From positions 1-64,000 of IMG/VR virus record IMGVR_UViG_3300035698_007208: a stretch of 64,000 nucleotides of DNA. One strand, given 5' to 3'. The notes under the pieces are model-generated. The model saw only the letters and a program-made list of their open reading frames with translations. It searched no databases and was not told the origin of the DNA. Below are positions 10,929-12,346 of the stretch, piece after piece. Source of the DNA: a virus. Both the position numbers and the translations under genes were made by a program. Position 1 is the stretch's first letter; the number at the start of each line of letters is the position of its first letter.

Positions 10929-11444
10929 ATGGAAAGTAAATATTGTCAACTGAAAACTAAAGATATTAAAGCATTAAAGGAAAAGCTACATGCGGAGCAA
11001 GATGGGATATGCCCTTTACTTGGTTTACCTTTTCCGCCAGAAGATATGGCCTTAGACCATAAGCATAAGCTGAAAAAAAACCCCGCCGGTCCAAATGGTG
11101 ACGGGTTAGTTCGTGGCGCAATCCATAAGTTTGCCAATTCAATAGAAGGTAAAATTACTAATAATTGGAAACGAACAGGATTGGAATATACGGCAGCAGA
11201 TCTACCAAAGTATTTACGTAACCTTGCCGACTACTTAGAAAACCCACCATGTGAGCAAATATATATTCATCCCAGTGAAAAAGAAGAAGAGCCGAAGATG
11301 TCTAAAAGAAATTATAATAAGCTCAAAAAAGCATATAAATTAAGTGGGAAAAAGGCTAAATTTCCAGATCCCCCAAAATACGGAAAAGTTACAGTTAAAC
11401 TTAAAAAGTTATTTACGGAATTCGAAATCAGCCCCTACAATTAA
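10929..11444 (+). CDS. gp49: Recombination/packaging endonuclease VII, gp49-like
   Basis: EQDGICPL, LDHKH, GLVRGAI..ANSIEGKI, YLRNLADYLE, IHP motifs. Confidence 0.88.
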   Translation: MESKYCQLKTKDIKALKEKLHAEQDGICPLLGLPFPPEDMALDHKHKLKKNPAGPNGDGLVRGAIHKFANSIEGKITNNWKRTGLEYTAADLPKYLRNLADYLENPPCEQIYIHPSEKEEEPKMSKRNYNKLKKAYKLSGKKAKFPDPPKYGKVTVKLKKLFTEFEISPYN

Positions 11445-11454
11445 AGCTATTTTG

Positions 11455-11462
11455 TATAAATA
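11455..11462 (+). promoter_or_regulatory. Late promoter TATAAATA of the homing endonuclease
   Basis: Exact consensus, 5 nt before ATG 11468. Confidence 0.7.
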
Positions 11463-11467
11463 TGATT

Positions 11468-12346
11468 ATGATTACCAACAAAATAACCCTTTACATAGCA
11501 ACCCATAATATTACTGGATTAAAATATTTTGGTAAGACTGCTTCATATTTTACATCAGAAGCATTGCAGCATAATTATCACGGTTCTGGATTATATTGGA
11601 AAAGGCATATTAATAAATATGGCGATGATGTAACAATGGCAGTGTATGGTGTTTTTGATCTACATACAGTTGAAGATGTAGCATTGGCATTTAGTAAGGG
11701 CAACAATATAGTAGAGTCTTCTATGTGGGCTAATTTTAAAGATGAAAACGGGCTTGATGGGAATCCGAAAGGTATCAAATTCTCAGAAACACATAAGAAA
11801 AATATCGGCATAGCATCTAAGCGAAAATTTGAAAATATAGCAAAAACTAATGCTAAAAATTCCTTAGACGCATTAAACTATTGTACATATAAAACAGATA
11901 GCGAATTAGATATTATAAACAAAAAGAAAGCAAACCATGGATCAAAAAATGGAATGTATGGTACGAGCAGAACTGGAATAGATTGCCCAACTTATAATAG
12001 AGTATGGATAACTAAGGATAACGTCAACCAGATGGTGTATAAAACTGAATTTAAAAAGTTTTTATCATTAGGATGGACGAAGGGTGTTAAACAACAAACA
12101 TCACAATGTAAACATTGTGGTAAAGTAATGTTGAAATTTCATATAACACGATATCACGGTGATAATTGTAAAACATTGTCTGAAGCTCCTATAATTCCTA
12201 AATTTAAAAAAGTTTGCTATAACAAATTAGTTAAAGCAGTTAATGGTAAGCAAAAAGTTCCTAATTATCCTCGGTCTGGTAAATTAACCAAGGGATTAGA
12301 AAAACTGTTTGCTAAGTATAGTGTAGATATAGAGTATTATAAATAA
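11468..12346 (+). CDS. Free-standing GIY-YIG (Seg-like) homing endonuclease
   Basis: LYIATHNITGLKYFGKT..YHGSGLYW, ENG; NUMOD3-like FSETHKKNI and NGMYG; CKHCGK..HGDNCK; endo VII-like tail. Start could be 11462. Confidence 0.8.
   Translation: MITNKITLYIATHNITGLKYFGKTASYFTSEALQHNYHGSGLYWKRHINKYGDDVTMAVYGVFDLHTVEDVALAFSKGNNIVESSMWANFKDENGLDGNPKGIKFSETHKKNIGIASKRKFENIAKTNAKNSLDALNYCTYKTDSELDIINKKKANHGSKNGMYGTSRTGIDCPTYNRVWITKDNVNQMVYKTEFKKFLSLGWTKGVKQQTSQCKHCGKVMLKFHITRYHGDNCKTLSEAPIIPKFKKVCYNKLVKAVNGKQKVPNYPRSGKLTKGLEKLFAKYSVDIEYYK

Follow-up and report, generated by a model that had tools for sequence, protein, structure and literature searches.

A T4-like phage endonuclease VII gene with an apparently foreign 3' end and its displaced native end fused to a putative homing endonuclease

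In fungal mitochondria, mORF elements give rise to 'gene hybrids', which have been described for atp6 of Allomyces macrogynus and for atp6, atp9, cox2 and nad3 of Glomus sp. (PMC3630166). In these hybrids a foreign C-terminus in phase with the target gene is followed by an endonuclease open reading frame (ORF) and then by the displaced native C-terminus; the native copy is nearer to that of element-free relatives, and the element is neither an intron nor an intein (PMC3630166). T4-type phages carry free-standing homing endonuclease genes (HEGs) of the Seg and Mob groups, GIY-YIG enzymes with NUMOD3 and zinc-finger DNA-binding modules (SegB, PMC2330249; PMC2988022). They are distributed patchily among related phages and are expected to spread by double-strand-break repair with co-conversion of the flanks (PMC2330249; PMC2988022); they lie between genes or split a gene into two polypeptides, as mobE does in nrdA of Aeh1, mobA in gene 60 and seg in gene 43 (PMC2988022). 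Here we analyze a stretch of 64,000 nucleotides (nt) of viral DNA (positions 1 to 64,000 of IMG/VR record IMGVR_UViG_3300035698_007208, hereafter the window), which is part of a 97.9-kb viral contig from a metagenome assembly and belongs to a T4-like phage. Its gene for the Holliday-junction resolvase endonuclease VII, gp49, is followed by a putative HEG that ends in a second copy of the gp49 C-terminal domain. A gene arrangement hitherto reported chiefly from fungal mitochondria is found here in a phage, in its 3'-end version, with the extra feature that the native domain, judged from the reading frame, is translated as part of the HEG product.

The gp49 gene of the window is intact and encodes 171 amino acids (aa; 10929-11444, plus strand); the second ORF follows on the same strand and encodes 294 aa (11462-12346). 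BLASTP matched residues 122-167 of gp49 to residues 246-288 of the downstream protein (46% identity over 46 aa, E 8e-7), and a search of the whole record recovered the same pair of tails. The Smith-Waterman score of the two tails is 87, compared with 28.9 ± 5.7 for 5000 shuffles (maximum 59), none of which reached the observed value. When the 58-aa tail of the HEG was used as tblastn query against 50,697 phage records, all matches fell on the 3' ends of genes annotated as endonuclease VII. Structure prediction with AlphaFold2 (AF2) gave the same two helices for both copies, at residues 126-139 and 156-164 in the tail attached to gp49 (predicted local distance difference test, pLDDT, 84-89) and at residues 250-260 and 277-285 in the tail fused to the HEG (pLDDT 86-88). 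The original prediction for this DNA, made from the letters alone, had the HEG ending in a second endonuclease VII C-terminal tail; the BLASTP match, the shuffles and the structure models of both tails bear this out.

The origin of the two tails was investigated by comparison with 16 gp49 loci fetched from relatives. The closest of these, L006 (gp46 74% identical at the aa level), contains no HEG, and its gp49 directly adjoins the convergent gp46 gene. A further uninterrupted gp49, P0124, which is nearer to the window than L006, was found with the HEG tail as query. The HEG stretch (11462..12178) is missing from both. L006 positions 87-406 align with window positions 10953-11272 with 79% nt identity, ending ...ATTCATCC (ATT CAT CC), and L006 positions 433-726 align with window positions 12204-12497 with 74% nt identity, continuing into gp46; L006 and the window are collinear on both sides of a single insert. 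At the protein level, P0124 shares 90.6% identity with the window in the gp49 core, 81.1% in the HEG-fused tail and 43% in the attached tail, the corresponding values for L006 being 86.3%, 73.6% and 43%. The attached tail has its best matches in P0148 (81%), P0161 (78%), P0128 (77%) and L009 (67%), proteins whose cores are only 44-50% identical to the window core.

Maximum likelihood trees gave the same picture. The core of the window gp49 groups with P0124 (support 97/91). In the tail tree, the HEG-fused tail is sister to the P0124 tail (97/92) within a clade that also holds L006 and P0126 (99/96), and the attached tail groups with L009 and tails of Vibrio phages. The approximately unbiased (AU) test rejected a placement of the attached tail with the P0124 and L006 lineage (p 0.0003) as well as a tree in which the two window tails are sisters (p 0.0001); the groups compared were named after the tree had been seen, the comparison itself having been proposed beforehand in the original prediction. 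On these trees, vertical descent of the attached tail and a local duplication are both rejected. The data support the view that the HEG-fused tail is the resident allele and the gp49-attached tail the foreign one. As had been proposed, the tail of the HEG is the one nearer to the ancestral allele, and gp49 has received its new 3' end from a lineage whose cores are only about 45% identical to its own.

The codons at both junctions define the insert. The HEG-less allele reads ...ATA TAT ATT CAT CCA TCA GAA TCA CCT..., and the window gp49 reads ...ATA TAT ATT CAT CCC AGT GAA AAA GAA..., being foreign from about 11273/11274. At the end of the HEG the sequence reads ...TGT AAA ACA TTG | TCT GAA GCT CCT... 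(the bar marking the junction) and is native again from 12179. The resident core of gp49, comprising the His-Me finger nuclease and long helices, extends through the IHP codons (10929..11273). The net insert of 905 nt (11274-12178) consists of three parts: the new 3' end of gp49 (foreign Ser-Glu, a 54-aa C-terminal domain and TAA; 11274..11444), which makes up the left part of the cassette and continues the frame of the core, a spacer of 17 nt between the gp49 stop and the HEG start, as read from the sequence (11445..11461), and 239 HEG codons (11462..12178). The displaced native 3' end (Ser-Glu, 53 aa and the native TAA; 12179..12346) directly follows the last HEG codons and is read in the HEG frame, as residues 240-294, through to the original gp49 stop. 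This native end is out of frame with the gp49 core, as 905 is not divisible by 3. The gp49 of the window is now an intact chimera of resident core and foreign tail.

The insert site coincides with the conserved IHPSE codons, which correspond to residues 103-107 (IHPN) of T4 endonuclease VII, just before the C-terminal domain. In the AF2 model of the window gp49 the site falls into a low-confidence linker (residues 105-125) between the core and the C-terminal domain; what the cassette has replaced is thus an entire structural domain. The window and L006 share 95% identity in the 62 nt before the left junction, compared with 79% for the whole core, which fits a conserved target and proves nothing. 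The recoded serine codon (AGT) was considered as a source of immunity to cleavage and this idea was dropped, since AGT or AGC stands at this position in HEG-less alleles too. Neither an intron nor an intein was detected: an Rfam search of 10000-12600 yielded no family at E ≤ 0.1 (one chance-level match only), Pfam found no intein domains, and gp49 ends at its own stop before the HEG starts. Insertion at the HPSE codons, fusion of the displaced 3' end in frame to the HEG and invasion of a coding gene without an intron had all been part of the original prediction, and the collinearity with L006, the codons at the right junction and the Rfam and Pfam searches agree with it in each respect.

In the order of its parts, the relationships of the two C-termini and the lack of intron and intein, the locus corresponds to the mORF gene hybrids. 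It differs from them in three respects. The mORF in atp6 and nad3 of Glomus is in phase with the upstream gene (PMC3630166), whereas the HEG of the window has its own start; the native C-terminus is not transcribed in the atp6 and cox2 hybrids (PMC3630166), whereas here it forms the C-terminus of the HEG product; and the hybrids are fungal mitochondrial (PMC3630166), whereas here the host is a T4-like phage and the target gp49.

The assignment of gp49 to endonuclease VII was examined by sequence and structure. The protein matches PF02945 with 27.4 bits (cut-off 23.6) and phrog_423 with E 3e-30, and its LDHKHKL and FANSIEG segments align to LDHDHEL and LCNAAEG of the T4 enzyme, covering the D-H...H...N catalytic motif. 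The AF2 model matches T4 endonuclease VII over its full length (1e7l, E 2.4e-6). The part that is duplicated in the window corresponds to the C-terminal helical domain of the T4 enzyme (1en7, 1e7l, 2qnc), which follows the conserved IHP motif (T4 residues 103-106). The window gp49 shares about 24% identity with the T4 enzyme, and its clade differs in the structural zinc site, where the T4 enzyme has four zinc-binding cysteines: in the window gp49 and in L006-L021 a single aligned position is Cys and the other three are not. In the cores of this clade (window 10929-11279) the aligned positions read GICPLL and HKFAN in place of the two CxxC motifs. All four cysteines are kept in the Vibrio phage homologues L002 and L003. 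The endonuclease VII membership of the window gp49 rests on features other than the zinc site.

The second ORF is, by its predicted fold, a Seg-like free-standing GIY-YIG homing endonuclease. The AF2 model, based on an alignment of 46 sequences, has a pLDDT > 90 over residues 10-100, and its GIY-YIG domain (residues 5-99, nt 11474-11758) superimposes on the I-TevI catalytic domain 1mk0 with Z 8.3 and a root-mean-square deviation of 2.9 Å (87/97 residues aligned); Foldseek gave a probability of 0.99 for I-TevI, and its top three matches of the model are all I-TevI. The HEG shares with I-TevI (1mk0, 1ln0) the catalytic fold and the modular order of nuclease, linker and zinc finger, and differs from it in sequence (15-17% identity) and in that I-TevI is intron-encoded. 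The HEG proper (residues 1-239) continues from the GIY-YIG domain into a helical NUMOD3-like linker and a zinc finger of the type CxxC-x12-H-x3-C (CKHCG-x12-H-x3-C; residues 216-236, nt 12107-12169), and its own stop codon is missing. It belongs to a family of 776 proteins, many of which contain PF07460 NUMOD3, the window copy staying below the Pfam threshold for this domain. Most family members stop 2-3 residues past the last zinc-finger Cys; the window HEG has no stop after the finger and continues into the gp49-like tail. PHROGs returned nothing for the HEG. Close copies of the region were not recovered either by megablast of 10000-13000 against phage records or by a scan of viral contigs with the HEG as single protein query, both of which gave no match. 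In the metagenome scan, the relative most similar to the HEG (L149:869-1634, 69% identity in the best segment) is split by a frameshift into ORFs of 80 and 161 aa and does not lie beside gp49; it appears to be decaying.

Four further members of the HEG family also end in gp49 tails. They represent at least three lineages, in each of which the junction differs: P0006 is 51% identical to the window HEG and joined at ...NDNC|PHNPNEVPK..., P0007 and P0008 are 44% identical, have a different DNA-binding region and are joined at ...AMQ|EPNVSKKNYN..., and in P0171 the junction is ...NNPRS|KKPKAPKVSK.... Otherwise, a profile search with the tail retrieved about 520 proteins of endonuclease VII size. 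Scans of viral contigs with P0171 and P0006 as queries gave no close loci. In a further protein, P0156 (400 aa), an N-terminal DUF723 (PF05265) and T5orf172-like module precedes a complete endonuclease VII in the same reading frame, possibly a further case of a HEG joined to gp49, here at the 5' end of the gene.

A mirror image of the window arrangement is present in the Vibrio phage VB_VaC_SRILMA (PP083314, 120112-121802, corresponding to L001:2899-4589), where a member of the same HEG family (36% identity to the window HEG, E 7e-33), annotated as 'head-tail adaptor', sits in the neck gene gp13. The first 37 codons of this HEG are the native gp13 start (106/111 nt identical to the HEG-less phage Va1), with the native upstream region kept. 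Past the HEG, the body of gp13 begins anew with a replacement start that is identical to Va1 in only 74/111 nt (67%), compared with 283/300 nt for the rest of gp13. The element is present in SRILMA and TDDLMA and missing in Va1, pv27, phiTY18 and phiKT1024. Both HEGs are joined in frame to the displaced native end of their target gene, which a foreign copy keeps whole. The geometry is reversed, however: in SRILMA the HEG gains the promoter, ribosome-binding site and start of its target, whereas the window HEG acquires no more than a stop codon and a C-terminal domain, a less obvious benefit. Elsewhere in the window (44101-44325), a 52-aa ORF ends ...LGLNMSGHILIRDKETKEELV and the next gene, immediately after it, starts MNLNMKGHVLVKDKESGEVL. 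A gene start is present twice here without an intervening endonuclease, and this might be what remains of a 5'-type cassette after the loss of its HEG.

Taken together, these data make it highly probable that a cassette of foreign tail, stop codon, spacer and HEG entered gp49 at the linker between the core and the C-terminal domain, and such a single insertion explains both junctions. According to the mechanism we propose, a Seg-like GIY-YIG HEG would travel as a cassette with a spare part of gp49. The endonuclease would cut a HEG-less gp49 at or near the IHPSE codons, and the break would be repaired from the HEG-bearing genome, which copies the cassette in. The left homology arm would be the gp49 core, and the right arm the displaced tail together with gp46; gp46 is likely to be the downstream homology arm. 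The carrier would not be cut because each of its two junctions holds only half of the uninterrupted site. The anatomy is observed in the window; the homing steps are modeled on the intronless homing of the Seg and Mob enzymes (PMC2988022, PMC2330249). The fused tail is most likely a by-product of this process that also acts as homology arm and source of a stop codon, with a use as protein domain being possible.

Several observations weigh against this interpretation. The closest HEG-less cores are only 86-91% identical to that of the window, and a near-isogenic pair with and without the HEG was not found. No clear Shine-Dalgarno sequence is present in the 17-nt spacer upstream of the HEG. Pfam gave no hit for the HEG at E ≤ 0.1, PF01541 GIY-YIG included, and so lent no support to the GIY-YIG label of the original prediction, which holds on the strength of the fold match to I-TevI; Y11, Y22, N91 and E95, candidates for four of the five conserved catalytic residues of GIY-YIG enzymes (Tyr, Tyr, Arg, Glu and Asn), are invariant in 46 family members. 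Among 160 other loci of the HEG family (L022-L181), screened by BLASTP on six-frame ORFs for gp49 and duplicated gene ends, none lies in gp49 and none has a duplicated end of a neighboring gene; the screen returned only paralogous HEG pairs and one opposite-strand gp49 fragment (L138). The habit of fusing to gp49 tails is, in this sample, not general in the family. Finally, the recurrence of in-frame fusions is no evidence of selection, because protein searches detect only in-frame tails.

The same anatomy would result if the tail had been retained on the HEG as a working protein module, adding DNA or branched-DNA binding, docking the HEG onto endonuclease VII or interfering with endonuclease VII. 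At least four HEG lineages carry a complete tail up to the natural gp49 end, with different junctions, as would be expected for a captured domain. Compared with L006, the fused tail is 73.6% identical and the tail of P0124 67.9%, so that it has not changed faster than functional tails; its end branch in the tree is short (0.11), AF2 folds it confidently into the two helices of gp49, and the tails of P0007 and P0008 share 92% identity, their HEG parts 81%. These rates are relative rates at the protein level, since L006, the sole DNA of the native lineage, is too diverged (74% nt identity) for the ratio of nonsynonymous to synonymous substitutions. The ascertainment bias toward in-frame tails bears on the recurrence, a native tail fresh from selection can be brought in again with every round of homing, which would mimic constraint, and P0005, the closest HEG relative, is without a tail, as is most of the family. 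The conservation of the fused tail fits recent invasion, re-import of native tails or real constraint. Overall, we regard capture of the domain as a working part as unlikely, and any role of the fused tail at the protein level as unlikely to about the same or a slightly greater degree. The more specific proposal, that the tail docks the HEG onto gp49 or branched DNA, tying its breaks to the junction-resolving and packaging nuclease, or modulates gp49, is rather improbable.

Two unrelated events could also have produced the locus, if recombination between phages swapped the gp49 tail and a HEG landed downstream later and lost its stop codon. The tails of gp49 are indeed mosaic (the L017 tail groups with L007 and L008, the L017 core does not), and the region downstream of gp49 attracts HEGs in L017. 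A simple swap, however, would replace the native tail and not leave it intact 905 nt downstream. Moreover, the native tail begins exactly at the Ser-Glu codons at which the foreign tail begins and directly adjoins the last codons of the HEG, one insertion accounts for both junctions, and other HEG lineages show this geometry too, as does SRILMA in mirror image; we consider two separate events very improbable. A local tandem duplication of the gp49 3' end with divergence and a HEG between the copies, a chance match or an assembly artefact is hardly credible: the copies do lie only 905 nt apart on the same strand of a metagenome assembly, but the AU test rejects them as sisters, each has a much closer relative elsewhere (81% in each case), none of the 5000 shuffles reaches the observed score, and independent datasets hold the same kind of fusion between HEG and tail.

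The surroundings of the cassette were inspected as well. Baseplate genes precede gp49 in the window, and the 679 nt directly 5' of it (10250-10928) contain no ORFs and match no Rfam family at E ≤ 1. On the right, the locus is flanked by a convergent gene for a gp46-like Rad50/SbcC ATPase (12347..14113, minus strand; AAA_23 and SMC_N domains). The sequence TATAAATA at 11455-11462 overlaps the ATG of the HEG and was considered as a late promoter. It was rejected as such with 10 occurrences in the window compared with 11.9 expected, and no promoter is claimed for the HEG because TATAAATA is not above chance frequency in the window. Several relatives carry additional genes in this region. Just downstream of gp49, L017 has two free-standing endonuclease-like genes (L017:4766-6084, minus strand); the product of one belongs to the GIY-YIG/NUMOD3 family of the window HEG (289 aa, two zinc fingers), and that of the other is an AP2-domain protein of 150 aa. 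The gp49 neighborhood attracts selfish nuclease genes. In L016 the gp46-like Rad50 ATPase is encoded by an ORF of 986 aa (L016:4538-7501, minus strand) with an insert of about 400 aa after about residue 50 that contains LAGLIDADG_3 and Hom_end domains and is suggestive of an intein in gp46. One or two radical SAM genes lie between gp49 and gp46 in L011 (L011:4526-7293) and L013 (L013:4526-5533), at the position of the HEG in the window.

A review of T4-type HEGs from 2010 mentions none with a replacement gene end or a fusion to the displaced end (PMC2988022), whereas the window HEG has both. We found no phage precedent for a HEG with a replacement 3' gene end in the literature, which is weak evidence of absence. 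The principle is known from fungal mitochondria, and the window extends a known kind of element and defines no new one. It indicates that a free-standing HEG can occupy an essential phage gene without intron, intein or splitting of the gene, with breakpoints resolved to the codon. As a side effect, a whole domain has apparently been swapped between gp49 lineages that are about 45% identical. The displaced native domain joined to an endonuclease is a ready-made source of nuclease fusions, and if the fused tail were a working module, HEG cassettes with spare parts would be a general route of domain exchange between phage proteins. Cultured Vibrio phages with and without the gp13 element make the mechanism directly testable. 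Homing would be one route to domain-level mosaicism in phage genes.

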